DNA of 64,000 bases from a virus (Duplodnaviria; Heunggongvirae; Uroviricota; Caudoviricetes). The notes under the pieces are model-generated. The model saw nothing but the letters and a program-made list of their open reading frames with translations. It made no database searches and had not been told where the DNA came from. Location: positions 7,047 through 71,046 of IMG/VR virus record IMGVR_UViG_3300031555_005217; one strand, given 5' to 3'. The position numbers were made by a program, and so were the translations under genes. Positions within the stretch are counted from its first letter, which is position 1; every line of letters begins with the position of its first letter. Shown here in pieces: positions 29,089 to 48,471 of the stretch.

Positions 29089-29089
29089 A

Positions 29090-30915: not shown

Positions 30916-30917
30916 AA

Positions 30918-31290: not shown

Positions 31291-31668
31291 ATGGGAATGT
31301 TTAAAAACACTCAAGGGATTACAAAGATTGTATTCCAACCAAAATTAGCAGCTCATTGTTTTTGCCCTTTAGGTGAGCTATACTGTAAAAAAGAGGCTGA
31401 AGGTACAGGTAAGAAACAAATGTTACCTCATTACACTAATCATTTTAAAATTACATTTATTCCAAATAAGTTAGTTTGTGATTATTGTGATATAGAGGAT
31501 TGGATTAGGGAAAATATCAATGATCAAACATTAATTATTGAAGATTGTGTTGATATGTTATTCAACCATATTAATACAACATATTCACCTGAATTTTTAA
31601 AGGTTGAATCATATGTACCTGACGCAGTTCATGGACCAGTAACAATTGAAAAGGAGACCATTTATTAA
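31291..31668 (+). CDS. QueF-like T-fold protein (QueF-L-type)
   Basis: HCFCPLG catalytic-Cys-like motif, FIPNKLVCDY, LIIEDC, PEFLKV; the QueF E(S/L)K(S/A)hK NADPH signature is not seen. Confidence 0.65.
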   Translation: MGMFKNTQGITKIVFQPKLAAHCFCPLGELYCKKEAEGTGKKQMLPHYTNHFKITFIPNKLVCDYCDIEDWIRENINDQTLIIEDCVDMLFNHINTTYSPEFLKVESYVPDAVHGPVTIEKETIY

Positions 31669-31672
31669 AATT

Positions 31673-32437
31673 ATGAAAAATCTAATACAAAAATTAAAAT
31701 CATTTAAAGCTAGTTCTTATATATTAGCAGTTACTATTTTCTATGCTATGGGCAGTTTACTAATTAATCTTATGGCAGTAAAAACAATGGGATATTATGA
31801 ACCTATTGATTTTGATAAAGGATTATTTGGTAACCCTATTATTCCAATTACCACAGCAGGAACTTGTATTTCTTGGTTAGTATTTGGAGCTATTGATGTA
31901 ATTACTGAAATTAGAGGTAAAAAAGGTGCCGTTCAAACTTTCTGGATTGTAGGTATACTAAATGTATTATTTACAGTTATTGCGGCATTAATTTGTTTTA
32001 TCCCTGGTAATCCTTGGACTAAAGATGCTTATGATGGAGTGTTTGGTGGTAACTGGGGTATTGCATTATCAAGTATTACCGCATTCTTAATTGGTAATTA
32101 TGTAAATGCTATTATATTCTATGTTATGAAGGTTAGAGATAAAGATCCAAAATCAGGTAAGAGTTTTACATTAAGAGTTATTGTATCAACACTAGTAGGT
32201 CAATTATTAGATAATGCTATTTTCTATATCGTGGCCTTAGCTCCTGGATTTGGAATTGGTGGAATTGTAAATCCTGCTGTAAGATGTGCAAACTGGGGTC
32301 ATTTATTTATGATAGTTGGATTTACTACAGCCATTGAATTAATAATAGAAACATTATTTAGTCCACTATTCCATAAATTCAGTCAATTTGTAATTAAGAA
32401 AAAAGAGCAAGAAGGAATTGAAGATATTTCATTATAA
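31673..32437 (+). CDS. yhhQ: YhhQ/VUT-family preQ0/preQ1 transporter
   Basis: DVITEIRGKKGA, SSITAFLIGNYVNAIIF, LRVIVSTLVGQLLDNAIF; multiple TM helices. Confidence 0.85.
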   Translation: MKNLIQKLKSFKASSYILAVTIFYAMGSLLINLMAVKTMGYYEPIDFDKGLFGNPIIPITTAGTCISWLVFGAIDVITEIRGKKGAVQTFWIVGILNVLFTVIAALICFIPGNPWTKDAYDGVFGGNWGIALSSITAFLIGNYVNAIIFYVMKVRDKDPKSGKSFTLRVIVSTLVGQLLDNAIFYIVALAPGFGIGGIVNPAVRCANWGHLFMIVGFTTAIELIIETLFSPLFHKFSQFVIKKKEQEGIEDISL

Positions 32438-32464
32438 AAAACAGGTAGAAATACCTGTTTTTAT
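32437..32464 (+). terminator. Intrinsic terminator
   Basis: AAAACAGGTA-gaaa-TACCTGTTTT followed by Ts. Confidence 0.8.
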
Positions 32465-32509
32465 TTTGATTAATTGTATATTATTTAAAATAAATAAGGA
32501 GTGATTAGT

Positions 32510-33061
32510 ATGAGTAAAGCCTTTAAAGTAGGTTTATATGTAGGTAGATTTCAACCAATGCATAGAGGGCATGAAAGTATAATTAGAAAAGCACTTAAAA
32601 TATGTGATATAGTAATAGTTGCTATTGGATCTAGTCAAGAAGAACATACCGAAAGAAATCCTTTTAGTGTAAGTTTGCGAGCTGAAATGATTAAAAAGAT
32701 ATTCAAACGTGAATATGAATGTCAATGTCTATATGTAATGGGTGTAAGAGATAGAGAAGATCCCGCAGATAATAGTGAATGGGGAGAGTATTTATTAGAT
32801 TCGGTTAAGATTGCAACTGGAGGTTTAGAACCAGATGTAATTATTGAAGGTTTTGAAACTACAAGAAGATCTTGGTTTTCCGAAAATTTATTATCACATG
32901 TGGTAATTAATAGAACTAATTTGCCTATATCAGGAACTCAGGTAAGAAAATATTTAGAAGATGATAATAGAACTGAATGGCGACATACAGTAAATAAAGT
33001 TATTTGGCCTTACTATGATAAGTTAAGGAAGGAATTAAAATTATGCGAAAAGAAAGAATAG
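32510..33061 (+). CDS. nadM: NadM-like NMN/NaMN adenylyltransferase
   Basis: YVGRFQPMHRGH (HxGH), IGSSQE...ERNPFS, ISGTQVR. Confidence 0.85.
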   Translation: MSKAFKVGLYVGRFQPMHRGHESIIRKALKICDIVIVAIGSSQEEHTERNPFSVSLRAEMIKKIFKREYECQCLYVMGVRDREDPADNSEWGEYLLDSVKIATGGLEPDVIIEGFETTRRSWFSENLLSHVVINRTNLPISGTQVRKYLEDDNRTEWRHTVNKVIWPYYDKLRKELKLCEKKE

Positions 33062-33822
33062 AACATTACGTAAATTATATAATTAAATTTATTAAAAATG
33101 AATTAGGTAAAGGTAAAGCAGTAATTGGTATTTCTGGTGGAAAAGATAGCACTATTACTGCAGCTTTATTATGTAAGGCATTGGGTCCTGAAAATGTAAT
33201 AGGTGTTATGATGCCTAATGGAGAACAATCTGATATTGAGGATTCAATTAAGGTTTTAAATTTTCTAGATATTCCAAGTGAAAACAGAAAGGTATTAAAT
33301 ATTGAAACTGCTTACCTTGCAACTATTAAGGAACTAGGCTTTAATACTAACACAGTTCCATCAATGATAAAAACTAATCTACCAGCAAGGTTAAGAATGG
33401 CAAATCTATATAACGTTGCAGCTTTATATCAAAATTCAAGGGTAATAAATACTTGTAACTTATCTGAAAATTATGTTGGTTATTCAACTAAGTTTGGTGA
33501 TCATGCTGGAGATACTGGAATATTGTATGATTTAACAGTTAAGGAATGTTTAGAAATTGGAGATTATTTAGGATTGCCTTATGATTTAGTCCATAAAAAA
33601 CCTTCTGATGGAATGTGTGGTAAGACTGATGAGGATAACTTAGGTTTTACCTATGAAGAGTTGGATAACTATATACTAAATAATGAAAAACCAAGTAATG
33701 ATAAATTAGAAAAAATTGAGAAGCTACATACAAATAATTTACATAAACTTAACCCAATGCCTTATCCAAGTAGAATGTTAATGGAATTAGATTACTTAAG
33801 TAGTGTAGCAGATGAATTATAG
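33043..33822 (+). CDS. nadE: NH3-dependent NAD synthetase
   Basis: IGISGGKDS, NLPARLRM..LY, NLSENYVGYSTKFGD, KKPSDG, DEDNLGFTY. Confidence 0.92.
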   Translation: MRKERIEHYVNYIIKFIKNELGKGKAVIGISGGKDSTITAALLCKALGPENVIGVMMPNGEQSDIEDSIKVLNFLDIPSENRKVLNIETAYLATIKELGFNTNTVPSMIKTNLPARLRMANLYNVAALYQNSRVINTCNLSENYVGYSTKFGDHAGDTGILYDLTVKECLEIGDYLGLPYDLVHKKPSDGMCGKTDEDNLGFTYEELDNYILNNEKPSNDKLEKIEKLHTNNLHKLNPMPYPSRMLMELDYLSSVADEL

Positions 33823-34771
33823 AAGAGAATATATTGAATATTTAAGATTGTGGCATCCTATCAGAGAATATGTTAAGGTATGGTTAGATGGTGATAAACT
33901 TAATATTACAGTAGAAGGACCTATGTTCCAATGTATGCAATTTGAAATTTATTTACTAGAAATTATTTCTCAAGCATATAATACTATAGTAGGAGATATT
34001 CCACAAATTAATATGAGTGGTATTGAAAAATTAAAAGAAAAAGTAAATGCTATTAATTCAGGTAAATATACTTTTAACTTTGCTGAATTTGGAGCTAGAA
34101 GACGTGCATCAGCTGAGTTACAACATAAAGCAGTTGAAATGCTAGCTGAAACTGGTAAATGTGTTGGAACTAGTAATGTTTACTTAGCAATGATTTTAGG
34201 CTTAAAACCTATTGGTACTTATGCACATGAATTTGTTCAAATGTATCAAGGTATTAAAGGAATGTCATTAGCATATACTAATAAGTATGCATTAGAAGAT
34301 TGGTTTGACGTATTTAATGGAGATAATGGTACAGCTTTAACTGATACATTATCAACAGATATATTCTTATTGGATTTTGATAAGAAACAAGCAACAATGT
34401 ATACTGGTGTTAGACATGATAGTGGTGATCCTTTTGTATGGGGAGAAAAAATATTAGCACATTATGAAAAATTAGGAATTGATCCAAAAACAAAGACTTT
34501 ATTATTTAGTGATAGTCTAAATTTTGATAAAGCTCAAGAAATTTATGAATATTTCAAAGATAGATGTAAAGTATCATTTGGAATTGGAACATTTATTAGT
34601 AATGATACTTGTCAACCAGCATTAAATATTGTTGTTAAATTACAATATGTAAATGGAAATCCTGTAGCTAAAATTTCAGATGTACTTGGCAAGACAATGT
34701 GCCAAGATAATTCCTACTTAGCACACTTAAAAGAGGCAGTTCAATATAGATTAGAAAGTGAAGGTAAGTAA
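33812..34771 (+). CDS. pncB: Nicotinate phosphoribosyltransferase, N-terminally shortened
   Basis: EFGARRR, GTSNV, GTYAHE, RHDSGDP, FSDSL, FGIGT, AKISD; lacks the N-terminal TDxYK segment. Confidence 0.85.
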   Translation: MNYRREYIEYLRLWHPIREYVKVWLDGDKLNITVEGPMFQCMQFEIYLLEIISQAYNTIVGDIPQINMSGIEKLKEKVNAINSGKYTFNFAEFGARRRASAELQHKAVEMLAETGKCVGTSNVYLAMILGLKPIGTYAHEFVQMYQGIKGMSLAYTNKYALEDWFDVFNGDNGTALTDTLSTDIFLLDFDKKQATMYTGVRHDSGDPFVWGEKILAHYEKLGIDPKTKTLLFSDSLNFDKAQEIYEYFKDRCKVSFGIGTFISNDTCQPALNIVVKLQYVNGNPVAKISDVLGKTMCQDNSYLAHLKEAVQYRLESEGK

Positions 34772-34772
34772 T

Positions 34773-35336
34773 ATGCAAAGAAATGTAACTTTAACTTTAA
34801 TTATTGATGCTCAAAAAGATTTCGTATATGATGTTTTAGGTTCTAAGGAAGCACAAAATTGTATTCCAGGTCTAGTTCAATTTATCAAAGAAGAAGAATC
34901 TTGTGGATCTTGTGTAATATTTACAAGAGATACTCATTCTAATAATTATATGAATACTAGAGAAGGAAAATATCTTCCAGTTCCTCATTGTATTGAAAAT
35001 ACTGAAGGTTGGAAAGTATGTGATGAATTATTAAATGCATCTATCACTAAATATCAGGTTAATAAACCTTCATTTGGAATGACTCAAGAAAGATGGAGAG
35101 AAGTGTTATATGAACATTTCTATTTTCTAAGTGATGTCCAAGAAATTAAATTAGTAGGTTTCTGTACAGATATTTGTGTAATTAGCAATGCTTTAAGTTT
35201 AAAGGCAATGTTTCCTGAGGCAAACGTTACAGTATATGAAGATTTATGTGCAGGAGTAACACCACAAAAACATGAAGCTGCTTTAGAAGTAATGAGAAGT
35301 TGCCAAATTAATGTTGAGAAGTACTTTAATAATTAA
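34773..35336 (+). CDS. pncA: Nicotinamidase (isochorismatase family)
   Basis: IIDAQKDF, TRDTH, PHC, KPSFG, GFCTDICV. Confidence 0.9.
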   Translation: MQRNVTLTLIIDAQKDFVYDVLGSKEAQNCIPGLVQFIKEEESCGSCVIFTRDTHSNNYMNTREGKYLPVPHCIENTEGWKVCDELLNASITKYQVNKPSFGMTQERWREVLYEHFYFLSDVQEIKLVGFCTDICVISNALSLKAMFPEANVTVYEDLCAGVTPQKHEAALEVMRSCQINVEKYFNN

Positions 35337-35345
35337 TAATAAATA

Positions 35346-35369
35346 AAAAGAGGATTAAATCCTCTTTTT
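35346..35369. terminator. Bidirectional terminator between pncA and the convergent late gene
   Basis: AAAAGAGGATT-A-AATCCTCTTTT inverted repeat flanked by A and T runs. Confidence 0.75.
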
Positions 35370-36500
35370 AATATGCAGCTACAAGAATTTTTTCTTCGCT
35401 ATAGAAATTTAATTGAACTTTCTTAGTGTTAAATTTATTTATTAATTCCATTAAATTCGTTATTAAATTTATATAATCAAACGATATCTCATTTTTATTA
35501 AACGCATCCTTTATAAAATCTATTTTTACTTTATTATTTGTTTTTATTATATCAAAATAAGTTTTTAAATTAAATAAATTTTTATTTGTTATAAGTTTAT
35601 CACTTAAATTTCTATTATTAAATTTTATATCTGAAGGAATTTTAATTATTTCTGGAAGTCAGATTTCTCTTAAAGCCTGTTTTATAATATAATCAGGAAT
35701 ATCATTTTTTACAATATATTCTCCTTCATCGGCCGTAAATTGATTACATAATTCATCTGCAAATTTAGGATTTAAATAAATATGAAGTCTAAATCTATCT
35801 GAAACTTTATACTCAGGATCATCTTTATGCTTTTTTCATTCTTCATAATTATTTAAATCATCTTTTTTTACTGTTAAAGATGGAGATGAAATTATTCCTT
35901 TATTATCTTGATAAAAATAATAAGATTTAAGATTAATTATTTCATCTTGATACTTTTCATTCCAACCTGAAGATTTATTTAACTTAAATTTTTGTCTTAG
36001 AATTGGAAAAGAATCAAATTCTAACATTTTTTCAACTAAATAAGTATATAATTCTTTTGAAATTTTAAATAATCCAGGTCAATTGTATACTTGTAAATAG
36101 TAGTTTCCATCTTCACCTTCTCCTACTCTATGTATTCTGGTATAACCTTTTCCTTTTTCTTGTCCTGTCAGATATTTTGAAAACTGATTTATGGAGATTA
36201 TTTCATTTCCTACTTTTTTAACATAATCTTCTACTAAATTAAAATCTAAATTAATTGCACAAGAAAATTTATTTGAATTTCTTATTATAGTTCCAGGAAT
36301 ATCATCTTTATTTTCTATGAATTGATTTGTAAATGAAACTGTACCTTTTCTTCCTTTTTTAATCCTGTTTTAAATATATTAGCTAAATCCTGCATACTTC
36401 TTGTAGCATGACTAAGCACTGTATCTTTAGCTGTAATTTTTACTCATTCATTAATTTCTAGTTGATTTAATTCTTTAATAGCTTCCAATAAAGTATTCAT
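35368..36500 (-). CDS. Late gene with ART-like motifs, interrupted by a -1 frameshift at A_AAA_AAG (about 377 aa when shifted; 4 TGA)
   Basis: GAGG SD and ATG 36500; LSHATRS..LANIFKTGLKK then -1 frame GRKGTVSFT...DEGEYIV; zero frame stops at TAG 36315-36317. Confidence 0.6.
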
Positions 36501-36531
36501 ATAAACCTCTTTTTAATTTTTATTCTTATAT

Positions 36532-36571
36532 AATTTAGCTATTTTTAATTATTTTAATCTATTAATTGTAT
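36532..36571. promoter_or_regulatory. Back-to-back promoters: GCTAAATT (minus, 36532-36539) and ATTGTAT (plus, 36565-36571)
   Basis: Both recurrent motifs sit in the 100-bp divergent intergenic region. Confidence 0.6.
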
Positions 36572-36601
36572 TATATAATAAATTGAAAATGAGGTGTTTG
36601 T

Positions 36602-37801
36602 ATGGATTATAAAGGAGTTAAAATACCTAAGAAGGTAATTATTGTATCTAAACCAAAAACGTGGTGGTTTAATTATCGTACTGAAGAAGTATATAGTAGA
36701 TACGATGATTGTTCACCTGCTTATGTAGTAGATCCTGATAGTAAAGGAATGTTAGATAGTGCTTTAAGTTGGTCAAGATCACAATCAATTAAATTAGATG
36801 AAAATAATAAACCTGTTGAATACATTAATCAATGGAATAGAAAAGAATATGAATATGAAGTAGTAGATGGTATTCAATATGAATATGATAATAATGGTTG
36901 CTTTGAATTTGAATTAGAAGATAGTGCTAATGGTTCTTGTCAAGGTGGAAAATTATCTTTCTGGAATTGTAAAATAACTGGACCAGATGGTAAGCAATTC
37001 CTAATTGGAATTAATTCAGATATCTTATTAAATCTATTAAAACATAATACTTTTGTAAATGGTAAATGTCAAAGTAAAGTATATCTAGGTAGAATAAAAG
37101 GTAATGCTGTAGGAGCATTTACTGAAAATATGGAATTATTTGAACAAGCAAAACATGATGATACCATAAGAAATGCTTCTAAAAGTAAAAAATACGTTCC
37201 AGGTGATATAGTTAGAACTAAAACAGAAACATTTGTTTATGTTGGAGAAATTTATAAAACTTTTGAAACTTTTGGTTATAAAACAAGTAATTGGAATTAT
37301 CGTGATTCAATAGATACAATCCACTTATTTGATAAGCCTAAGAAATATCACATGTATATTCACTTATATTCTCATTCTAATTTTGACAAGGAAGATAATA
37401 TAATTGATATTGAAAAAGGTAGTATTCGTTTATTAGAAAATAAACAATCTTACATCCTATGTAATAAACATATTGATGTATTAAGTCCATATGAACAATA
37501 TCTAGAATGTAATGAAGAAAATATTAGATCCTCTAGTGATAAAGAGTATTATAGAATTAAGAAAGAAATTTCAATGTATCAATTCTCTAATACACAAAAT
37601 ACCAACTTGAATAAGGAAATATTAGAGAAGGTTATAAATAAGGATATCATTAAAAATTCCAATATCTTAAGAAATTATACATGCTCATTTTATCGTAATT
37701 ATCGTGATATTGATAATTGGACAGATTTATCAGTATTAAATGATAGTGAAGTGGAATTAATAAAAGAAAAATATAAAGATTATAATCGATGGGAGTATTA
37801 A
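36602..37801 (+). CDS. Hypothetical protein (399 aa; 8 Trp, all TGG)
   Basis: Track ORF with GAGGTG SD. Confidence 0.75.
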   Translation: MDYKGVKIPKKVIIVSKPKTWWFNYRTEEVYSRYDDCSPAYVVDPDSKGMLDSALSWSRSQSIKLDENNKPVEYINQWNRKEYEYEVVDGIQYEYDNNGCFEFELEDSANGSCQGGKLSFWNCKITGPDGKQFLIGINSDILLNLLKHNTFVNGKCQSKVYLGRIKGNAVGAFTENMELFEQAKHDDTIRNASKSKKYVPGDIVRTKTETFVYVGEIYKTFETFGYKTSNWNYRDSIDTIHLFDKPKKYHMYIHLYSHSNFDKEDNIIDIEKGSIRLLENKQSYILCNKHIDVLSPYEQYLECNEENIRSSSDKEYYRIKKEISMYQFSNTQNTNLNKEILEKVINKDIIKNSNILRNYTCSFYRNYRDIDNWTDLSVLNDSEVELIKEKYKDYNRWEY

Positions 37802-37806
37802 TTACA

Positions 37807-37998
37807 ATGAAGATTTATGTAGTGGTATTAAAAGGTTATCATATCTATGAAAAAGCATTTTTAAATAGAGAAGATGCCGAAAATTTTATTGCTCCAATGA
37901 ATGATGATTATCATAATTACGTTCAGAATTGTATAGATAATTATGAATCTTATTCAGATATTGGTGAATATGAAATTATTGAGGAAGAGGTGAATTAA
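37807..37998 (+). CDS. Small hypothetical protein
   Basis: GGGAG SD before ATG 37807. Confidence 0.55.
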   Translation: MKIYVVVLKGYHIYEKAFLNREDAENFIAPMNDDYHNYVQNCIDNYESYSDIGEYEIIEEEVN

Positions 37999-38001
37999 TA
38001 T

Positions 38002-39060
38002 ATGACATTACAAGAGATTAAAGAAATGTTAAAAACAGAAGCATATGACTTCTTAAGAACTGATAAACATTTGGGAAATAGAATTATGTTTTTATGTTTA
38101 GGTGGTTCTCATAGTTATGGTACTAACATTGAAACATCAGATGTAGATATTAGAGGTGTAACTTTAGATACTACTGAATGTGTTTTAGGACTAGAACATT
38201 TCGAACAAAGATTAGATGCAACTACTGATACCACAATTTATAGTTTAAGTAAATTCTTAGATTTGGTTAGCAATTGCAATCCTAATATTATTGAAATGTT
38301 ATTTTGTAAACCAGAACATTATTTATATGTAAGTCCTTTAGGTCAAATCCTATTAGATAATAGACATTTATTCTTAACTAAGAGAGCTTATCATACATTT
38401 GGTGGATACGCTCATGCACAATTAAATAGATTAGAAAATGCAATGGCTAGAGATAACGAGGCATTGACTGAGGAAGAAGTTCAAACTCATATTTCTAGAT
38501 CTTTAAAGAATTGTCTTCAAAATTGTATTGAAAAATTTGAATTTAATGAAGATCAATTTAAGATTTATGTAGATAAATATGATAAGAATTATAATAAGCA
38601 ACAAGATAAGCTAGGTACATTTGGTATCTTTATGGATGCAACATTTGAAAAATTACCTGTCGCAGAATTCAATTCATTACTGTTGGAATTAAGTCAAGTA
38701 GTAAGAGATTTTAATTCAAGTGTTGGTCAACGTAATAAAAAGAAGGATGATATTCACCTTCAGAAGCATATGATGCATTTAATTCGTTTGTATATTATGT
38801 GTAATGAAATCTTAACTACAGGTGATTTACATACATATCGTGAGAATGAACATGAATTATTAATGAATATTAGAAATGGTAAATATAGAAGTGAAGATGG
38901 TAAGGTAACTCCTGAATTCTATGAAATGTTACATAAGTTAGAAACTGAATCTAAATCAGGTTATGATAATTCCAAGTTACCTAAAACAGTTGATAAGAAA
39001 CAAATTTATGATAAAATTATTAAACCTATTTATTCACAAACATTATTTAAGGAGGAATAG
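38002..39060 (+). CDS. Pol-beta-type nucleotidyltransferase (RlaP/Nuc-transf-like)
   Basis: GGSHSYGTNIETSDVDIRGV, NPNIIEML, KHMMHLIRL. Confidence 0.85.
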   Translation: MTLQEIKEMLKTEAYDFLRTDKHLGNRIMFLCLGGSHSYGTNIETSDVDIRGVTLDTTECVLGLEHFEQRLDATTDTTIYSLSKFLDLVSNCNPNIIEMLFCKPEHYLYVSPLGQILLDNRHLFLTKRAYHTFGGYAHAQLNRLENAMARDNEALTEEEVQTHISRSLKNCLQNCIEKFEFNEDQFKIYVDKYDKNYNKQQDKLGTFGIFMDATFEKLPVAEFNSLLLELSQVVRDFNSSVGQRNKKKDDIHLQKHMMHLIRLYIMCNEILTTGDLHTYRENEHELLMNIRNGKYRSEDGKVTPEFYEMLHKLETESKSGYDNSKLPKTVDKKQIYDKIIKPIYSQTLFKEE

Positions 39061-39062
39061 TT

Positions 39063-39842
39063 ATGGAAACAGATGCTTTAGGAACTAGAATGAAGGAATA
39101 TGAATTTGTTCCTAGAAATTATTTATTAAGAAGAACACCAGTAATTATTAGAATTGATGGAAAAGCTTTTCATACATTTACTAGAGGTTTAAATAGACCT
39201 TTTGATAAGACTTTTCAAAAATGTATGGTTGAGACTGTTAAATATTTATGTGCAAATGTTCAAAATTGTGTATTAGGTTATACTCAATCTGATGAAATTA
39301 CATTAGTTTTATTAGATGATTTCAAATTGAATACCTCTCCATATTTTGATAATCAGGTTGAAAAGATTTGTTCAATAACAGCATCAATGGCAACCTTAGC
39401 GTTCAACCAAGCAATTTATAATGAATTGGAATCTGGTTTTACTGAAGGAGATCCATCATATGATGTATGGAAACAAAAACTTTTCAAAGCACAATTTGAT
39501 AGTAGATGTTTTAATGTTCCTAATCGAACTGAAGTATATAACTGTTTAGTTTGGAGACAACAAGATGCTATTAAGAATAGTATTACAATGTTAGCTTTAT
39601 CACATTTCAGTAATAAACAATTACATAAGAAAAATGGTAAAGAAAAAATTACTATGTTAGAAGAAATTGGTGTTAGGTGGAATGAATTAGATAACATTGA
39701 TAAACAAGGAATTATTATTAAAAAAGTATATTATGATAAGAATGGAGCTTTAAGAAGTAAATGGGAAGAAGATGTAAACACTCCTGTTTTTACTAAGGAT
39801 CCTGATTATATTATGAAATTATTAAACAAAGAAGGTGAATAA
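39063..39842 (+). CDS. Thg1-like tRNA-His guanylyltransferase / 3'-5' RNA polymerase
   Basis: IRIDGKAFHTFT, GYTQSDEIT, FDSRCF, WRQQDA..NS. Confidence 0.92.
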   Translation: METDALGTRMKEYEFVPRNYLLRRTPVIIRIDGKAFHTFTRGLNRPFDKTFQKCMVETVKYLCANVQNCVLGYTQSDEITLVLLDDFKLNTSPYFDNQVEKICSITASMATLAFNQAIYNELESGFTEGDPSYDVWKQKLFKAQFDSRCFNVPNRTEVYNCLVWRQQDAIKNSITMLALSHFSNKQLHKKNGKEKITMLEEIGVRWNELDNIDKQGIIIKKVYYDKNGALRSKWEEDVNTPVFTKDPDYIMKLLNKEGE

Positions 39843-39843
39843 A

Positions 39844-40275
39844 ATGATTTCAGTTAACGTACATCAAGATATGATTACCGCAATGAAAAATAAAGATAAA
39901 TTAAAGAAAGATGTCTTATCTTTACTTTATAGTAAGTTAAAAAATAAATCAATTGAACTAAAGCAATTACCTTTAGAAGATAATGAATCAACAAAAATTG
40001 TTCAAAAATTTATTAAAGAACTAGATGATGAAATTGTATTAAATATTAAAGTAAATAGAATTGAAGCCGCAAATAATTTAAAATTACAAAAAGAAGTCGT
40101 TTCTTCATATTTACCTAAAATGTTATCTGAAGATGAAATTAGAAATGAAATTGAAAAATTAACAGATAAATCTATTCCATCTATTATGAAACATTTTAAA
40201 GCAAATTTCAATGGAAAGGTTGATATGGGTTTAGTAAATAAAATTGCTAGAACTTATCAAGGAATGGAGAAATAA
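39844..40275 (+). CDS. GatB/YqeY domain protein
   Basis: AMKNKDK, LKNKSIE, YLPKMLSEDEI, GKVDMGLV. Confidence 0.85.
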   Translation: MISVNVHQDMITAMKNKDKLKKDVLSLLYSKLKNKSIELKQLPLEDNESTKIVQKFIKELDDEIVLNIKVNRIEAANNLKLQKEVVSSYLPKMLSEDEIRNEIEKLTDKSIPSIMKHFKANFNGKVDMGLVNKIARTYQGMEK

Positions 40276-40276
40276 T

Positions 40277-41635
40277 ATGAATTTTAAAATCCCTAAAAAC
40301 ATTCAACAAGTATTAGATATTTTACATAAGAATAATTTCGAAGCATACCTTGTTGGAGGTTGTGTTAGGGATTTTCTTATGAATATTGAACCTAAAGATT
40401 ATGATATTACTACTAATGCTTTACCTAATCAAATTAAAGAAGTATTTAAGGATTACAAATTAATTAATAATAATGGTGAAAAGCACGGAACTGTTACTGT
40501 TTTTATTGAGGAACCTATTGAAATAACTACCTATAGAGGAGAAACTACTTACTCAGATCATAGACATCCAGATGAGGTTATTTTTAAAACGGAATTAAAA
40601 GATGATTTAAGCAGAAGAGATTTTACAATTAATGCAATGGCTTATGATGGAAATAAGTTAGTAGATTTATTTCTAGGAGAAGATCACATTATTCTTTCAC
40701 AATTACATGCTGTAGGAGATCCAGATGAACGTTTCAAAGAAGATGCCTTAAGAATTCTGAGAGGTATTAGGTTTGCATCAAGATATAAAATGTCTATTGG
40801 CAAAAAAACATTGGAAGCAATGCATAAAAACAAATATTTATTAGATTTTATTTCTAAAGAACGTATTAGAACAGAGTTAAATAAAATGATTTCATATGAA
40901 TACTTTGCAGTTTTACTAGAGACTGAGGTAAGAGATATTATTTCTTATATTCTACCTGAAATAAGTGTTATGTTTGATTATGATCAAAGAAGTTTATATC
41001 ACACTAATGATTTATGGCATCATACTTTATCAACAATGTTCTCATTAAATACCTATAACTATATTGTTAAAGTTGCAGCTTTACTTCATGATGTAGGAAA
41101 ACCTTATGTGGCAACTGAATATGAAAAAGATGGTGTTATATTAAAACATTACATTGATCATGCGGAAAAATCATATGAAATTGCTACAGGAATTTTAGAT
41201 AGATTAAAATATTCTAATGAAGAGAAAGAAAAGATTTTATTCCTAATTAGATATCATGATTTTAATTTTTCTACAAAAAGATTAAACAGATCTATGAAAA
41301 AATTTATTCAGTTAATTCCTGAAAAATATAGAGATGAATTATTTGAACTATTTTTGGAATTAAAGTTTGCTGATAATAGAGATCATACTATTAATTTTCC
41401 AAAAGAAGTTATAGATGAATTAGAAACTGCCTATAACTCAATCATTAACACTGAAATTTGCTTTTCTTTAAAGCAATTAGCTATAAATGGTAATGATTTA
41501 TTAAAACTCGGTTATAATGGAGTTTTAATAGGAAAAATATTAAATGATTGTTTAAATAAAGTTATTGAAGAAATTTTAGAAAATAACAAAAATGTTTTAA
41601 TTACATATGTAAAAGATATGTATATATTAAATTAA
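40277..41635 (+). CDS. cca: CCA-adding tRNA nucleotidyltransferase with HD domain
   Basis: YLVGGCVRD, DYDITT, RRDFTINAMAY, EDALRILR, LHDVGKP. Confidence 0.92.
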   Translation: MNFKIPKNIQQVLDILHKNNFEAYLVGGCVRDFLMNIEPKDYDITTNALPNQIKEVFKDYKLINNNGEKHGTVTVFIEEPIEITTYRGETTYSDHRHPDEVIFKTELKDDLSRRDFTINAMAYDGNKLVDLFLGEDHIILSQLHAVGDPDERFKEDALRILRGIRFASRYKMSIGKKTLEAMHKNKYLLDFISKERIRTELNKMISYEYFAVLLETEVRDIISYILPEISVMFDYDQRSLYHTNDLWHHTLSTMFSLNTYNYIVKVAALLHDVGKPYVATEYEKDGVILKHYIDHAEKSYEIATGILDRLKYSNEEKEKILFLIRYHDFNFSTKRLNRSMKKFIQLIPEKYRDELFELFLELKFADNRDHTINFPKEVIDELETAYNSIINTEICFSLKQLAINGNDLLKLGYNGVLIGKILNDCLNKVIEEILENNKNVLITYVKDMYILN

Positions 41636-41671
41636 TTGTATAATAATTAATATTAAGTAAAGGAGAATAAT

Positions 41672-42313
41672 ATGTTAACAGAACAACAAATAGAGTTAAA
41701 TAAAAATGAATTTTTATCCTTAATTAATCAAATTAATATTCCTGGAGCAGATATTCAAGGATTAATTAAATTTTTAGAAGAAAGTGATTTCTTTTACGCT
41801 CCTGCTTCTACTAATTACCATTCAGCATATACAGGTGGATTATGTGAACATAGTTTAAATGTATATAGAACATTAACAAAATTAGTAGAAATGTTTAGTT
41901 ATCAAATTCCTAATTTAGATATGAATTCAGTATTAGTTGTAGGACTATTACATGATTTATCTAAAGTAAACTTCTATGAATCTTATATTAAAAATGAGAA
42001 AATTTATAATGAAAAAGGATTAAAATCTGATAATATGGGAAAGTTTGATTGGGTTGCTAAACAAGCTTTTAAAGTAAAAGAAGCTAAAAATAGATTTTTA
42101 TGTAAAGATCATGAAACAAATTCTATGATTTTAATCTCTAGATATATTCCTTTAAGTATGGAAGAAACAATAGCAATTCTTAATCATCATGGAGGATTAG
42201 GTGATACAAGTACTAATTGGGATTTAAGTCCTATTACTGATACAAATCCTTTATTATGTTTACTTCATGCGGCTGATTATATGAGCACATTTATTCTAGA
42301 AAATATGGAGTAA
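41672..42313 (+). CDS. HD-domain phosphohydrolase (YhaM-like)
   Basis: HSAYTGGLCEHSLNV, LLHDLSK, HHGG, LHAAD. Confidence 0.85.
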   Translation: MLTEQQIELNKNEFLSLINQINIPGADIQGLIKFLEESDFFYAPASTNYHSAYTGGLCEHSLNVYRTLTKLVEMFSYQIPNLDMNSVLVVGLLHDLSKVNFYESYIKNEKIYNEKGLKSDNMGKFDWVAKQAFKVKEAKNRFLCKDHETNSMILISRYIPLSMEETIAILNHHGGLGDTSTNWDLSPITDTNPLLCLLHAADYMSTFILENME

Positions 42314-42314
42314 A

Positions 42315-42680
42315 ATGAAAGATAATTTAAGTTTAATTGAAAAAGAACTTAAAAAAGTTAAATATGCAGACTTATCTACTTTTGATATTAATACTAATAC
42401 TTATTTTATTAAAAAGAGAAATGATATTAAAATTGAAGAAGATAAGTCTTATTTAATTTATCTAGAAGATTCTTTTTTTAATGATTTAGATTTAAAAATT
42501 AAATGGAATTCAAATTTATCGCCTAATTATAGATGTTTAAAAGTTGTTATTGATAAATTATATTTAGATATGGTTAAAATATCAGGTATAGCTTATGATT
42601 TAAATATGAATAAAGATATAGCCTATGTTTGGTCAGGTTGGTCACATTTAAATCAAATTAAAGTATTACAAAAATTATAG
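42315..42680 (+). CDS. Hypothetical protein
   Basis: Track ORF, coupled to the HD gene. Confidence 0.6.
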   Translation: MKDNLSLIEKELKKVKYADLSTFDINTNTYFIKKRNDIKIEEDKSYLIYLEDSFFNDLDLKIKWNSNLSPNYRCLKVVIDKLYLDMVKISGIAYDLNMNKDIAYVWSGWSHLNQIKVLQKL

Positions 42681-42723
42681 AATTGTATATTAAATTAAAT
42701 TTAAGTAGAAAGGAATTGATATA

Positions 42724-43776
42724 ATGGCACAATCACTTGCAGTCAAATATAGACCTAAAACATTTGAAGATACATTATCTCAAGGATCTGTTATTAAAAT
42801 TTTAAGAAGACAATTAGAATTAAAGCAATATACTAATTGTTATTTACTTTCAGGACCTTCAGGCTGTGGTAAAACAACATTAGCTCGTATATTTGGAAAT
42901 GAAATTAATCAAGGAAAAGGCAGTTTAATAGAAATTGATGGAGCTTCTAATAATGGAGTAGATGCTATTAGAACCATAATTGATGAAGCTAAAGAAAGAA
43001 GTATTGATAGTGAATATAAGATATTTATTATTGATGAATGTCATATGATTACTACTCAAGGCTGGAATGCATTCTTAAAATGTATTGAAGAACCTCCTAA
43101 ATATACTATATTTATGTTTTGTACAACAAATCCTGAAAAAGTTCCTGCAACTATTCAAAATAGAGTTATGAGACTTAATTTATCTAAAGTAAATATAAAT
43201 TTAATTAAAGATAGATTGCTTTATATATGTAAAAATGAAGGATTTACTAATTTTAATGAAGCTTGTGAATTTATTTCTAAATTAAGTTCTGGAGGAGTTA
43301 GAGATGCTATTTCTTTATTAGAAAAATGTGCTAATTATTCCACCGATTTAAATATAAATAATGTTTTAGAGTGTTTAGGTAATTTCTCTTATGATTTATT
43401 TTTCGATTTAACAAATGCTTTTGTTGATAGAAATCAAGGAGAGGTTTTAAATATCCTTCAAAGTTTTTATGATTCAGGAAAAGATTTAAAATTATTTGTA
43501 GATCAATATTTAGATTTTATATTAGATTTAAATAAATATTGCATATTTAAAAATATGATAAGCTTAAAAATACCTGCATCTTTAGAGGTGGTCAGATTTT
43601 CTAATGGAGATCCTAATCCAAGATGTGTTAAGTATGTAACTGGTATTGAAAATAATATAAATTATTTTAATATGCTCGTTAAACACATTTTAAATATGAA
43701 GAACATAATTAAGTATGATACTAATATTAAATCTACTATAGAAGCTTTAAGCATTCAAATTTGTGCTGGAATATAG
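42724..43776 (+). CDS. dnaX: Clamp loader DnaX (gamma/tau-like) ATPase
   Basis: LAVKYRPKTF, GPSGCGKTT, EIDGASNNGVDAIR, IIDECHM, LKCIEEPP, TIQNR. Confidence 0.92.
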   Translation: MAQSLAVKYRPKTFEDTLSQGSVIKILRRQLELKQYTNCYLLSGPSGCGKTTLARIFGNEINQGKGSLIEIDGASNNGVDAIRTIIDEAKERSIDSEYKIFIIDECHMITTQGWNAFLKCIEEPPKYTIFMFCTTNPEKVPATIQNRVMRLNLSKVNINLIKDRLLYICKNEGFTNFNEACEFISKLSSGGVRDAISLLEKCANYSTDLNINNVLECLGNFSYDLFFDLTNAFVDRNQGEVLNILQSFYDSGKDLKLFVDQYLDFILDLNKYCIFKNMISLKIPASLEVVRFSNGDPNPRCVKYVTGIENNINYFNMLVKHILNMKNIIKYDTNIKSTIEALSIQICAGI

Positions 43777-43794
43777 AGATAAGGATTTTAATTT

Positions 43795-44622
43795 ATGAAT
43801 AAAATATTAGGACAAGATAATTTATTAAATAAATTAAATAATTATGATTTAAATAACTTTCCTAGATCTTTATTATTAGTAGGAGATAGAGGAAGTGGAA
43901 AACATTTAATATCTAATTATATAAAAGAAAATATTTTAAATCTTCCTTTAATTGATATTACTGAAATAATTTCTTCTGAAGTTATTGATAATATTTATAT
44001 AAATCCAAATCCTTCTATATATTTAATTAATTTGTCTGATATTACAGAAAAAAGTCAAAATATACTATTAAAATTTATAGAAGAACCTTTAAGTAATGCT
44101 TATATTATTTTATTATGTGAATCTAAATTAAATGTTTTAAATACTATTTTAAATAGATGTGTAACTATTGAATTAGAATTATATACTAAAGATATTTTAA
44201 GTAATTTTATTTCAAATAATGAGAATAAGGAACTTATTCTAAATGTATTAAAGACTCCTGGAGATATTATAAATTCAAATTTAAGTAATATTGAAGAATT
44301 ATATGATTTATGTATTAAAATATGTGATAAAATAAATTCAGCTAATATTCTTAATTCATTATCTATATGTGATAAAATAAATTATAAAGATGAATATAGT
44401 AAATTTGACTTAAATTTATTTTTAGATGTTTTAGCATATTCATTAAATAAATACTATAAAGAAACTTTATGTTTAAAATATTTAAATATGTATTTAATAT
44501 TAATTGAAAATAGAAAAAAATTAATTGATAAAAGAATAAATAAAAGACTGTTTATGGAAAGTTTAATTATCAAACTTTGGAAAGGAAGTAGAGATAATGG
44601 ATATAATTCAATTAAAATCTAA
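43795..44622 (+). CDS. holB: Clamp loader delta-prime-like subunit
   Basis: Degenerate Walker A GDRGSGKH, QNILLKFIEEP, VLNTILNRC. Confidence 0.75.
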   Translation: MNKILGQDNLLNKLNNYDLNNFPRSLLLVGDRGSGKHLISNYIKENILNLPLIDITEIISSEVIDNIYINPNPSIYLINLSDITEKSQNILLKFIEEPLSNAYIILLCESKLNVLNTILNRCVTIELELYTKDILSNFISNNENKELILNVLKTPGDIINSNLSNIEELYDLCIKICDKINSANILNSLSICDKINYKDEYSKFDLNLFLDVLAYSLNKYYKETLCLKYLNMYLILIENRKKLIDKRINKRLFMESLIIKLWKGSRDNGYNSIKI

Positions 44623-45487
44623 AATAGAATCTAATTCTTTAGATGATTCTTTACTTATTTTAAAGTATTCTGATAATAAATTTTTATGTGAACATTATAT
44701 AGATAATATATCTAAAAATAAAAATTTAGAAAAAGTATATGTAAATTCTATAACTGATATATTTCAAAATAATTCATTCTTTGAAACTGAAGATAATTAT
44801 TTATATGTTTTAGATGTAGAAAAATTAACTGAATATCCTGATCAAACTTATAAAAATTTAATTATTTTATGTAAAGAATTACCTGATAATTTAACTGTTG
44901 ATTATGTAGAAGTCAATAAATTAATTAATTGGCAAATAGAAGATTATGTTAAAATGAGATTACAAGGTTTGGGAGAACAAGAAGTTGTTTGGTTATGTCA
45001 AATATGTAAATATGATATTTATAGATTAGATCAAGAATGTAAAAAGATAGAAATATTTCCTGTAGGAGCAAGAAATAATATATTTAACATTATAAATTCA
45101 GATAATGGATATTGTGATTTAACAGATAAAAATTTATTTGATTTTACTGATGCTGTTATAAGAAAAGATTTAGAGACTATAAATAATTTAATTCCAGATA
45201 TATTCGTTGTAGATATAGAACCTTTAGGAGCTGTAACAACTTTATTAAAGAAATTTAAACAAATATTAGCAATACAAACAAATTGTAAATCTGCTATAAC
45301 TTCTATGGGAATGAGTGATAAACAAGTTTGGTTTTTAAAGAATAATCAATGTAATATTTATAGTACAGATAAAATTATAGATATTATTGAGTTTTTAACT
45401 GATATAGATTTTAATTTAAAATCAGGTAATTTAGAATTAAGTAAAGAATCTTTTTTAGATTATTTAGTTGTTAATATGCTAAATTAA
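44597..45487 (+). CDS. holA: Clamp loader delta-like subunit
   Basis: LDQECKKIEIF, NLFDFTDAV, EPLGAVTTL, LTDIDFNLKSG; follows dnaX/holB. Confidence 0.7.
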   Translation: MDIIQLKSKIESNSLDDSLLILKYSDNKFLCEHYIDNISKNKNLEKVYVNSITDIFQNNSFFETEDNYLYVLDVEKLTEYPDQTYKNLIILCKELPDNLTVDYVEVNKLINWQIEDYVKMRLQGLGEQEVVWLCQICKYDIYRLDQECKKIEIFPVGARNNIFNIINSDNGYCDLTDKNLFDFTDAVIRKDLETINNLIPDIFVVDIEPLGAVTTLLKKFKQILAIQTNCKSAITSMGMSDKQVWFLKNNQCNIYSTDKIIDIIEFLTDIDFNLKSGNLELSKESFLDYLVVNMLN

Positions 45488-45523
45488 TACTGTATAATAT
45501 ATTTAGAAAGGAAATTGATTTAT

Positions 45524-47383
45524 ATGGCTAAAGTAGATAAAAAAGATAGAATATTAATGATTGTTGAAAGTCCAAATAAAGTAAAGACACTTAAACAAAT
45601 TTTACCTGACAATTATATTATTATGGCTTCTGTAGGTCATATTAGTAAAATAAATGACTCTGGATTATATAATATGGGAATTGATCCAAATAACAATTTC
45701 GAATTTGACTTTGTAATTTCTCCAGATAAAAAAGAAGTTGTTCAAAAATTAAAAGAACAAGTAAAATTATCTGATAAAGTTATATTAGCTAGTGACCCTG
45801 ACCGTGAAGGTGAAGCTATTGCATATCATTTAAAGAATTTCTTAAAAATTCCTGAAAATAAATATGAAAGAATTACTTATCATGAAATAACAAAAAAAGC
45901 TGTTATGGAAGCTTTAAAAAATCCTAGAAAAATAGATGAGAATTTAGTTGGTGCTTCTTTAAATAGAAGTGGAAGAGATAAAATAGTAGGATATAGAGTT
46001 TCAAATATAGCTAGAAATAATGTTAATGCAAGATCTGTAGGAAATTGTCAATCTCCTGGTTTAGGTCTTATTGTAGATTTAGAAGAAGAAATTGAAAATT
46101 TTAAATCTGAAACTTATTTTGATTTATATTTACATTTTTCAAAGAACGATGTTGATTTTAAAGCAAAATATTTTGGAACTAAAGAAAAAGAAATTTCAAG
46201 ATTAAATTCTCTTAATGAGTGTAAAAATATAGTTAATGAATGTAAATTAAATAATTATTCTATTTTAGATATAACAAAAAAAGATAGCTTAGAAAATCCT
46301 AAACCTCCATTTACAACTTCAACATTCCAACAAGAAGTTTCTAAAAGACTTGGAATTAGTGTAAAAGATGCTATGGATTCTGCTCAAAAACTGTTTGAAG
46401 GTATTGATATAGAAGGAGATCATATAGCCTTAATTACATACCATCGTACAGATGATGCAACTTATGCTCCTGAATTTTTACCTGAATTGGAAAATTTTGT
46501 TAAAAATACTTATGGAAATGAATATTATTCTCCTGTTAAGTTTGGCAAAAAAGGTGAAAATGCTCAAGAAGGTCATGAAGGAATAAGATGTATTGATCTT
46601 GAAATGACTCCTGAAAAATTAAGTAATTATATCTCTAATCAAAGACTTTTAAAAATATATGATATTATATATAAACGTACAGTAGCTTCAGCTATGAAAC
46701 CTGCTATTATTGCTAATACTATATATACTATTCAAAATGGAAATCATTTATTTACAATGAATTCTAAAGAATTACGTTTTGAAGGATATAGAAAAGTTTA
46801 TTCTTACAGCTCAAATGATGATTCTAAAGAAGATGCTCAAATAATAAAAGAAACATTTGAAATTAATGAAATATTACAAAATACATTTGAAGAAGCAGTT
46901 GAAAAACATACAAATCCTCCTTCAAGATATACTGAAGCTTCGTTCTTAAAAATATTAGATAAAAAAGGTATAGGACGTCCTTCTACTTATTCAACTATTA
47001 TTTCAACTATATTAGATGAAAAAAGAGGTTATTGTAAATTAGTAGATAAGTATTTAATTCCAACAGATTTAGGAATTAAATTAGTTCATTTCTTAAAGAA
47101 AAATTTCCCTTCTATTGTAGATGTCACATCTAGAGCTTCAATGGAAAAGACTTTAGATTTAATTGCAAAAGGAAAAGTAAATTATATAGATGATTTAAAA
47201 CAATTTTATTCTTCACTTGAGAATGAAATTAAAAAGATTTCTCCTAATGAAGGACAAGAAAAAATTTGTTCTAAATGTGGAAAACCTATGGCAATAAGAA
47301 AAGGTAAATATGGATTATTCTATGGATGTACAGGATATCCTGAATGTAATAATATAGAAAAATTTGGATATAGAAAGGATTAA
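45524..47383 (+). CDS. topA: Type IA DNA topoisomerase with C-terminal Zn ribbon
   Basis: IVESPNK, ASVGH, ASDPDREGEAI, ITYHRTD (catalytic Tyr), AQEGHEGIR, GIGRPSTY, CSKCG...GCTGYPEC. Confidence 0.92.
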   Translation: MAKVDKKDRILMIVESPNKVKTLKQILPDNYIIMASVGHISKINDSGLYNMGIDPNNNFEFDFVISPDKKEVVQKLKEQVKLSDKVILASDPDREGEAIAYHLKNFLKIPENKYERITYHEITKKAVMEALKNPRKIDENLVGASLNRSGRDKIVGYRVSNIARNNVNARSVGNCQSPGLGLIVDLEEEIENFKSETYFDLYLHFSKNDVDFKAKYFGTKEKEISRLNSLNECKNIVNECKLNNYSILDITKKDSLENPKPPFTTSTFQQEVSKRLGISVKDAMDSAQKLFEGIDIEGDHIALITYHRTDDATYAPEFLPELENFVKNTYGNEYYSPVKFGKKGENAQEGHEGIRCIDLEMTPEKLSNYISNQRLLKIYDIIYKRTVASAMKPAIIANTIYTIQNGNHLFTMNSKELRFEGYRKVYSYSSNDDSKEDAQIIKETFEINEILQNTFEEAVEKHTNPPSRYTEASFLKILDKKGIGRPSTYSTIISTILDEKRGYCKLVDKYLIPTDLGIKLVHFLKKNFPSIVDVTSRASMEKTLDLIAKGKVNYIDDLKQFYSSLENEIKKISPNEGQEKICSKCGKPMAIRKGKYGLFYGCTGYPECNNIEKFGYRKD

Positions 47384-47387
47384 TAAT

Positions 47388-47912
47388 ATGATTAAATTTT
47401 ATAAAGTAAGTTATCAACAATTTAAAGAGGATTTCTTAAATAGTGATTATAAGTATTTAAACTTAGAAGAGGAAGATATTAAGTTAATATATGAAAATAT
47501 TAAGTTACCAAAGAGAGCTACAAAAAATTCTGCAGGATATGATTTTTATCTTCCTACTGGAATCAAATTATTAAATAACCAAAGTGTTAAAATTCCAACA
47601 GGAATTAGATGTGAAATGGATCCTGAATCAGTATTAATGTTACTTCCTAGAAGTTCTTTAGGGTTTAAATATAGATTTTCTTTAGATAATACTTGTGGAG
47701 TTATTGATGCTGATTATTTCTCAGCTCTAAATGAAGGTCATATTCAAGCTAAAATCCATTTTTATAATGAAGATAATGAATATATTTACCTTGATGGTGA
47801 AAGTGCGTTTATGCAAGGTATTTTTATGAATTATTTAAAAACAGTAGATGATAATACAAATGAAGAGAGAACTGGTGGATTTGGTTCTACAAATAAAAAA
47901 GGTAATGAATAA
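47388..47912 (+). CDS. dut: Trimeric dUTPase
   Basis: SAGYDF, PTGI, PRSSLG, GVIDADY, RTGGFGST. Confidence 0.92.
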   Translation: MIKFYKVSYQQFKEDFLNSDYKYLNLEEEDIKLIYENIKLPKRATKNSAGYDFYLPTGIKLLNNQSVKIPTGIRCEMDPESVLMLLPRSSLGFKYRFSLDNTCGVIDADYFSALNEGHIQAKIHFYNEDNEYIYLDGESAFMQGIFMNYLKTVDDNTNEERTGGFGSTNKKGNE

Positions 47913-47997: not shown

Positions 47998-48471
47998 CTA
48001 TTTATTATATTTCCTTAATAAGTTTAAGTCTATTACTTCTTGATTAGACGATCCTCTATATTTAAGTCTTATATCCTTTTTATCAATTTCGAAAGGTCCG
48101 CAAACTGCAACATCTATTGGACTGTTTAATAAAAGTTCCTTTTTCAAATCAAATTCAAATCCTGTCCATAACCATATATCCTTATTAGGATATTTTTCTT
48201 TAACCTTATTACATAATTTTATAACACCATTAACATTATATGGATGTAATGGCTCTCCACCTAATATAGATAAACCTTGATAATGATCTGGTTTTAATAA
48301 ATCAATTATTTTATCAATTGTGGAATCAGTAAACTCTATACCTAAATTAAAATCCCAAGTATCCTCATTAAAACAACCTTTACAGTGAAAATGACATCCT
48401 TGAAAAAATATACTAACTCTAATTCCTGGACCATTTGATATATCCATACATCTTATCTTGTTATATCTCAT
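47998..48471 (-). CDS. nrdG: Anaerobic RNR activating enzyme (radical SAM)
   Basis: DISNGPGIRVSIFFQGCHFHCKGCFN, LGGEP, YRGSSNQ. Confidence 0.93.
   Translation of the reverse strand: MRYNKIRCMDISNGPGIRVSIFFQGCHFHCKGCFNEDTWDFNLGIEFTDSTIDKIIDLLKPDHYQGLSILGGEPLHPYNVNGVIKLCNKVKEKYPNKDIWLWTGFEFDLKKELLLNSPIDVAVCGPFEIDKKDIRLKYRGSSNQEVIDLNLLRKYNK

Follow-up and report, generated by a model that had tools for sequence, protein, structure and literature searches.

A large tailed phage, recorded in IMG/VR as IMGVR_UViG_3300031555_005217, writes tryptophan (Trp) with both TGG and the stop codon TGA, and the choice between the two is divided gene by gene. In a block of 19 co-directional genes (31291-47912) every Trp codon is TGG, whereas most are TGA in the tail module and in the recombination module adjacent to the block. 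The window analyzed here is a stretch of 64,000 nucleotides, bases 7047-71046 of a 156,901-bp virus contig; coordinates follow the window numbering unless marked 'genome'. The contig has 25.9% GC, is classed as linear and is estimated to be ~88% complete, the complete genome being probably at least 190 kb. It belongs to an AT-rich, large phage with a contractile tail, from animal-gut metagenomes: six animal faecal sequencing runs, four of them possibly the source runs, contain at least 0.92 of the sampled words of its DNA; runs with small shares, an RNA run among them, were left out of account. The best explanation, which we regard as probable, is that this phage reads TGA as Trp in a host using the standard code and that the partition separates genes translated before a code switch from genes translated after it.

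Open reading frames (ORFs) of at least 60 codons were called under code 4 (n = 214 across the contig). Reading TGA as sense (code 4) lifts the coding density to 0.893, from 0.754 under code 11, and all 214 ORFs terminate in TAA or TAG. They contain 164 TGA and 367 TGG codons (TGA share 31%), with TGA present in 75 ORFs (35%) and missing from 139. Since the TGA-free genes shun this triplet both as sense codon and as stop, they read alike under either code. An earlier, sequence-only reading had counted by hand about 39 Trp codons in the plus-strand genes of the block, all TGG, and the recount gives 40 TGG and no TGA over the 19 genes; the two TGA of ORF 36566 lie upstream of its true start (ATG 36603), which has its own Shine-Dalgarno sequence GAGGTG. 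Its other tallies were likewise reproduced: TGG is the only Trp codon in dpdA, queC, folE, queE and queD (24 TGG) and in nrdD-a, nrdD-b and nrdG (10 TGG), and the tail genes of the window, credited with at least 20 in-frame TGA, contain 27. The same reading listed PolA, the SNF2 helicase, RecA, SbcCD and two resolvases as TGA carriers. This was borne out for all except the second resolvase, with four TGA in SNF2 and one each in the C-terminal half of PolA, the UvsX/RecA-like protein, SbcC, SbcD and the RecU-type resolvase; the putative second resolvase (25162-25581) had no Pfam or PDB match.

The statistical contrast is very strong. The per-module Fisher test that had been proposed separates the TGA-free block from the tail module (p = 1.5e-12), from the recombination module (p = 7e-10) and from the remainder of the genome (p = 3.5e-5). 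Recoding is equally dense in the tail and recombination modules (~6 TGA per 1000 codons each). Genes with TGA occur in clusters: going along the genome, the state changes 47 times, compared with 82 +/- 6 changes in permutations (p < 5e-5). The partition tracks genes and not regions: late-type genes such as the antisense ORFs within the block (35368-36500) and the homing endonuclease inserted in NrdD carry TGA amid TGA-free surroundings. Homing endonucleases are among the TGA-richest genes: the three found on the contig have TGA/TGG counts of 2/1, 6/1 and 6/0, which amounts to TGA at 14 of 16 Trp codons. Two of the three have the GCTAAATT motif described below just 10 nt before the ORF start. 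At the other extreme, two arrays of small phage-only ORFs have 0 TGA / 36 TGG (genome 115-126 kb) and 4 TGA / 62 TGG (genome 135-150 kb).

TGA in this phage is a sense codon for Trp, and not for Gly or Ser. This follows from comparison with G002, one of two relatives (G001 and G002, both genome-scale IMG/VR records) found by a search with an alignment of CCA-enzyme homologues: opposite 47 TGA codons in 53 reciprocal-best orthologues, TGG is the commonest codon of this standard-code genome (26, followed by TAT 7, TTT 3 and ATA 3). In alignments of the SNF2 helicase with solved SNF2 proteins, TGA codon 489 falls on the Trp conserved in their 'WNP' motif and another TGA on Phe; the PolA TGA aligns with Phe of Taq polymerase.

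The phage encodes the corresponding decoder. A tRNA-Trp(UCA) had been suggested as a thing to look for in the rest of the genome, and ARAGORN and Rfam located a tRNA(UCA) on the minus strand (genome c[101157-101252]), 30 kb past the window end. This tRNA of 96 nt has G73 and an acceptor stem of the Trp type (A1-U72, G2-G5), and a ATTGTATAT motif stands 42 nt upstream. Beside ~29 tRNAs of the contig, covering 19 amino acids, it is the only UGA decoder, and tRNA-Trp(CCA) is missing from this set. No member of the class I tryptophanyl-tRNA synthetase family was found on the contig (88% complete). A peculiarity of this tRNA is its long extra arm, the loop of which (CUCCAAA) is identical to the anticodon loop of tRNA-Trp(CCA). 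In its vicinity lies a GC-rich non-coding stretch of ~120 nt, bounded by a ATTGTATAAT motif (genome 101588) on one side and by the tRNA's own promoter-like motif on the other. An Rfam search with this stretch gave nothing at E up to 1; a small structured RNA may be expressed from it, beside the code-switch tRNA.

Codon composition bears on whether TGA-free genes are simply of foreign origin. Within the two-fold A/G families (Lys, Glu, Gln, Leu-TTR and Arg-AGR), codons ending in A have a share of 0.876 in the TGA-free block, compared with 0.875 elsewhere. About 88% of unconstrained Trp codons would therefore be expected to be TGA, against 0 of 40 in the block. The GC content of third codon positions (GC3) is 0.12, and relative synonymous codon usage (RSCU) correlates at 0.98-0.998 in comparisons of the TGA-free block, the tail and recombination modules, and all TGA-free with all TGA-bearing genes. 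Codon usage being alike in all blocks, neither composition nor recent gene transfer explains the partition. The possibility that the TGA-free blocks are recent imports of atypical composition had been raised in the sequence-only reading, and the codon usage of these genes proved indistinguishable from the rest. In its full form, this alternative supposes a host that natively uses code 4 or code 25 and blocks newly acquired from standard-code genomes. Standard-code Clostridia do contain the cellular homologues of the TGA-free metabolic genes, and GC3 is slightly higher in TGA-free than in TGA-bearing genes (0.132 vs 0.111). Apart from the uniform synonymous usage, however, the TGA-free ORFs make up 139 of 214, phage-only small ORF arrays among them, and imported standard-code genes would include TGA stops, of which no TGA-free gene has a single one. 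With a sister phage in standard code, a tRNA(UCA) encoded by the phage itself and TGA codons aligned with Trp rather than Gly, the import scenario appears scarcely credible.

The standard code is the likeliest one for the host, as the sequence-only reading had assumed. In phages of standard-code hosts the share of genes with the recoded codon is 26-71%, as opposed to ~90% in code-25 hosts (Borges et al., 10.1101/2021.08.26.457843). The 35% of TGA-bearing genes found here fits the former range and is far from the latter, which argues for a standard-code host, as do the standard code of G002 (11% TGA stops), the provision of a UGA decoder by the phage, the native codon bias of the TGA-free blocks and the fact that the nearest cellular homologues are those of Clostridia. 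Thus, the 80 cellular homologues of the CCA enzyme among the matches listed are all from Bacillota, nearly all of them Clostridia (Ruminococcus, Oscillospiraceae and Lachnospiraceae) in gut and rumen metagenome-assembled genomes, and a bacterial contig with a 53%-identical CCA enzyme uses TGA stops. Homology thus suggests that the host is probably a member of Clostridia.

The two relatives place the partition in an evolutionary frame. G001 (166.5 kb, 27% GC) is recoded, with a coding density of 0.741 under code 11 vs 0.907 under code 4, a TGA share of 39%, an ordinary 76-nt tRNA(UCA) and, in addition, tRNA-Trp(CCA). G002 (158.9 kb, 28% GC) uses the standard code, with densities of 0.916 and 0.921, TGA stops in 17 of 156 ORFs and tRNA-Trp(CCA) only. 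For 60 orthologue pairs with Trp, TGA is absent from both this phage and G001 in 18, present in both in 27, present only in G001 in 10 and only here in 5 (p = 1.6e-4; Spearman 0.62). The genes that are TGA-free in both recoded genomes comprise four NAD-salvage genes, RlaP, the CCA enzyme, YqeY, the HD protein, NrdG, the clamp, two clamp-loader subunits, QueE and QueD. Conversely, the large clamp-loader subunit, NrdD, DpdA, FolE, the primase, DnaB and the ligase carry TGA in G001 and none here, and a 121-aa protein has 3 TGA in G001 vs 3 TGG here; with more G001 genes holding TGA, the boundary of the partition shifts between relatives. The split is thus not a fixed programme, and in this respect the code-gated programme envisaged at the outset is unsupported as it was put. 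Within one clade, G002 (no recoding), this phage (31%) and G001 (39%) form a series that fits the published spread of recoding after acquisition of a suppressor. A search for further relatives with the tail sheath found none in IMG/VR, and the sheath matches in GenBank phages reach only ~27-29% identity, to Flavobacterium and Bacillus phages. A 191.6-kb contig has an identical CCA enzyme, and ~35 kb appear to be missing from the present contig; a near-identical and a 94%-identical relative also exist, and the closest one in synteny is a 208-kb contig. Two candidate relatives, L008 (which holds P0015) and locus L011 (which holds P0007), turned out to be bacterial and were discarded. One TGA-free gene conserved in both relatives (55-56% identity) encodes a 528-aa protein with DUF2828, DUF7788 and weak VWA matches.

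Promoter-like words were sought in the 90 nt upstream of genes, Shine-Dalgarno words being set aside. Two stand out. ATTGTAT(A), which resembles an extended -10 element and often follows a terminator-like hairpin, occurs in 29 upstream regions vs 4.8 expected; genome-wide, the ATTGTAT 7-mer is not enriched (85 sites vs ~105 by a hand estimate from base composition). GCTAAAT(T) occurs in 17 upstream regions vs 3.0 expected, mostly before tail genes, homing endonucleases and the antisense ORF at 36500. When genes are assigned to the nearest upstream motif, GCTAAAT (GCTAAATT) units contain 75 TGA / 69 TGG and TGTAT units 84 / 257 (p = 8e-9). A generic sigma-70 scan (167 sites vs 162 expected) was useless in DNA this rich in AT.

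The mechanism proposed is as follows. On entry, the phage would depend on the host machinery alone, RF2 (release factor 2) would terminate at UGA, and the genes needed at that point would be kept free of TGA, whether sense or stop. The tRNA-Trp-like tRNA(UCA), standing behind an extended -10-like motif ATTGTATA of the type that precedes many TGA-free genes, would then accumulate and render UGA readable. Genes needed later (tail, recombination nucleases, SNF2, PolA and homing endonucleases) would drift from TGG to TGA under the strong AT pressure. Such a constraint, under which genes expressed before the tRNA cannot hold TGA and the others drift, is the simplest reading of the data, and a regulatory benefit is possible.

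Several points weigh against this explanation. The order of expression that it supposes is deduced from gene function and sequence motifs only, and the host and its code were approached indirectly, no CRISPR spacer or prophage link having been found. An RF1 or an RF2 inhibitor, which the sequence-only reading had proposed to look for along with the suppressor, did not turn up: the contig (88% complete) contains no RF1/RF2 domain and no factor directed against RF2. Nor was any capsid, portal, terminase or lysis gene recognized on it at this completeness, so that 'virion genes' here means tail genes only; the Terminase_6N, Gp23 and HK97 capsid families gave no match, the blank for Gp23 being uninformative as its control was silent in every genome. 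Furthermore, the whole recombination module, 65% of whose Trp codons are TGA, and the TGA-free block that comes after it on the same strand share a TGTAT-type motif, and the putative promoter class therefore fails to predict TGA use. Either TGTAT motifs may hide a distinction between early and middle genes, or TGA may add a translational delay to co-transcribed genes. Finally, GCTAAAT is found before just two genes in G001 and is thus not shared; its role as a late promoter is weakly suggested by the present genome and still more weakly by G002.

The motif-sharing modules speak for an adaptive variant, in which in-frame TGA would be selected as a post-transcriptional timer. Until the suppressor is abundant, it would delay PolA, recombination enzymes, homing endonucleases and virion parts, even where transcription is early. 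Two neighbouring blocks on one strand, alike in motif and codon bias, have TGA/TGG counts of 32/17 and 0/40, the partition is largely kept in G001, and the strong TGA bias of homing endonucleases is also seen in Agate phages (Borges et al.). Signs of positive selection are nevertheless missing. The TGA share of late modules (0.65-0.75) lies below the neutral expectation (0.88-0.93); TGA codons are spread evenly along genes (Kolmogorov-Smirnov p = 0.75), with no 5' bias and no bias in the +4 context; the boundary differs among relatives; and many of the supposedly delayed genes have one TGA. A single UGA is leaky in Firmicutes, with UGA read through as Trp in Bacillus subtilis. Selection for delay is accordingly doubtful, if conceivable. 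The sequence tests gave no sign that would separate an adaptive gate from mere constraint. The interpretation offered by the sequence-only reading is supported in part: Trp as the meaning of TGA, the gene-wise partition, the tRNA(UCA) of the phage and a probable standard-code host speak for it, but the code gate finds no support in the form proposed.

Translation efficiency rather than timing could also shape the partition if suppression were imperfect throughout, so that genes with high output or costly truncation products avoided TGA. The abundant tail sheath and tube proteins of G001 would be a case in point, as their genes are TGA-free (0/5 and 0/4) though their neighbours carry TGA, and within the same genes Trp is less conserved at TGA than at TGG positions (53% vs 68%). 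However, the latter difference falls short of significance (p = 0.26), in the present phage 2 TGA are found in the sheath gene and 2 in the tube gene, and >100 small ORFs of unknown function in the early-type arrays (genome 115-126 and 135-150 kb) are TGA-free as a block, which timing fits better than abundance. Efficiency as the main cause is thus quite improbable, and translation before or after the code switch remains the preferred explanation.

The replication genes deserve separate attention, since the sequence-only reading inferred that replication waits for TGA decoding. This holds only for PolA (1 + 1 TGA), a DnaA/DnaC-like ATPase (2) and SNF2 (4). The replisome is mixed, as TGA is absent from the genes of the DnaG-like primase, DnaB helicase, ATP-dependent ligase, beta-clamp-like protein and topoisomerase, from those of three clamp-loader subunits and from that of dUTPase. 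With two groups of genes sharing promoter-like motifs, it may be imagined, although we find it rather unlikely, that TGA acts as a post-transcriptional timer inside the TGTAT-type class, holding back PolA, the DnaA/DnaC-like ATPase, SNF2 and SbcCD/UvsX/RecU until tRNA(UCA) accumulates. If this were so, translation of the primase, DnaB, clamp, clamp loader, ligase and topoisomerase could begin immediately, and the code switch would determine when DNA synthesis and recombination-dependent replication set in, besides assembly and lysis.

The layout of the region is given in Table 1. The TGA-free block encodes a Vut_1 (YhhQ-like) transporter, four enzymes of NAD salvage (cytidylyltransferase-like NMNAT, NadE, NAPRTase and an isochorismatase/PncA-like protein), a set for RNA and tRNA repair (RlaP, a Thg1-like protein, YqeY, the CCA-adding enzyme and an HD protein) and the clamp-loader subunits, topoisomerase and dUTPase already mentioned. 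Several tail genes are preceded by the GCTAAATT motif. In the recombination module, the peptide deformylase homologue has no Trp codon at all, and two overlapping small Trp-rich ORFs (161 and 163 aa) are real genes since both have orthologues in G001 and one of them in G002. The PolA gene is split: the C-terminal half (62789-63877, 362 aa) begins just before motif A, and the N-terminal half (63877-65508, 543 aa), with the exonuclease and the N-terminal part of the polymerase, starts past the window end. The cistrons overlap in TAATG, with GGAGG 8 nt upstream and no endonuclease gene between the halves; in G001 and G002, PolA is one ORF of ~890-950 aa. In two ORFs of the mostly TGA-free zone, the sole TGA is the last codon (before TAA) or the fourth-last (three codons before TAG) and could be a true stop with a back-up stop; genome-wide, TGA near C-termini is not enriched (12 seen vs 11.3 expected).

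Table 1. Location of the features discussed, with Trp codon counts (window numbering unless marked 'genome')
Feature	Coordinates	Strand	TGA and TGG; remarks
Tail module (tail fibre, baseplate hub, tail tube, tail sheath, unknowns)	68-14129	-	27 TGA inside window; whole module 38 TGA / 13 TGG
Recombination/repair module (exonucleases, SbcD, SbcC, RecU-type resolvase, UvsX/RecA-like, peptide deformylase, unknowns)	14216-31193	+	32 TGA / 17 TGG
Two small Trp-rich ORFs	15262-16207	+	11 TGA / 4 TGG
Peptide deformylase homologue	23852-24547	+	
TGA-free block, 19 genes	31291-47912	+	0 TGA / 40 TGG
Antisense ORFs inside TGA-free block	35368-36500	-	2 + 1 TGA; GCTAAATT 39 nt upstream; terminator-like hairpin 35370-35344
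NrdG-like radical-SAM activase	47998-48471	-	0 TGA / 3 TGG
ORF with TGA near its end	49078-49503	-	sole TGA terminal or near-terminal
Split NrdD	49574-53108	-	NrdD-a (51801-53108) 0 TGA / 1 TGG; NrdD-b (49574-50674) 0 / 6
Homing endonuclease between NrdD halves	50658-51734	-	2 TGA / 1 TGG
SNF2-family helicase	53176-54855	-	4 TGA / 1 TGG
ORF with TGA near its end	55148-55744	-	sole TGA terminal or near-terminal
Beta-clamp-like protein, DpdA-like transglycosylase, QueC, FolE, QueE and QueD homologues	56516-62760	-	TGA-free; DpdA-like 0 TGA / 9 TGG
Isomerase-like ORF, 140 aa	58901-59323	-	1 TGA; sole TGA carrier in 56516-62760
Family A DNA polymerase (PolA), two cistrons	62789-64000, on to 65508 (genome 69835-72554)	-	1 TGA in each half
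GC-rich non-coding stretch	genome ~101400-101520	-	
Homing endonuclease	genome 105112-106290		6 TGA / 1 TGG
Homing endonuclease	genome 127585-128442		6 TGA / 0 TGG
528-aa protein (DUF2828, DUF7788, weak VWA)	genome 134723-136309	-	TGA-free

Recoding of this kind has precedents. Recoded phages are known from standard-code hosts, with early genes in the standard code and recoded structural and lysis genes. The Jade, Sapphire, Agate and Lak clades have several recoded modules; the most TGA-biased genes of Agate phages include one for an intron homing endonuclease, standard-code and recoded genomes coexist in one clade, and the replication machinery is variably recoded (Borges et al., 10.1101/2021.08.26.457843). 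Accordingly, the extension of recoding to replication, put forward as new in the sequence-only reading, was already in print in general form (Borges et al.), and the partition corresponds to what has been published for recoded phages of standard-code bacteria rather than to a novel type of system. Like the Agate, Jade and Sapphire code-4 phages, the present one combines low GC, a genome size of 130-200 kb, an animal-gut origin and a suppressor tRNA(UCA) with a minority of TGA-bearing genes, scattered recoded modules, TGA-rich genes for structural proteins (here those of the tail) and homing endonucleases, mixed codes within the clade and variable recoding of replication. It differs from them in the 96-nt suppressor tRNA with its extra arm and in the failure to identify a lysis cassette. 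Replication uses the standard code in the Agate and crAss-like examples of Borges et al., whereas here TGA is present in PolA, SNF2, the DnaA/DnaC-like ATPase and the entire recombination module.

Similarities with T4, viewed along the lines of the discussion of a T4-type programme by Borges et al., include a large tRNA set, UvsX- and gp46/47-like (SbcCD) genes, genes in pieces with homing endonucleases and a short A/T-rich late-type promoter-like motif. However, T4 reassigns no stop codon and its timing is transcriptional. Block-wise recoding of TAG or TGA in crAss-like phages was reportedly described by Yutin and colleagues in 2021, and the study of recoded phages by Borges and colleagues is said to have had its journal version in Nature Microbiology in 2022. 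The crAss-like phages share with the present phage the recoding of part of the genome, suppressor tRNAs and standard-code hosts, but they are podovirus-like, infect Bacteroidota and have other gene contents, whereas a contractile tail and homologues pointing to Clostridia are found here.

The published model is left unchanged by these results. They provide a clean and quantified example of partial stop-codon recoding, in a phage whose entire recombination module is recoded, together with part of its replisome. The three-genome series from G002 through this phage to G001 can be used for mapping the spread of TGA from late genes into replication genes. In addition, the genes kept free of TGA in both recoded genomes, for NAD salvage, tRNA repair, NrdG, the clamp, QueE and QueD, suggest functions that the phage needs before its own decoding works.

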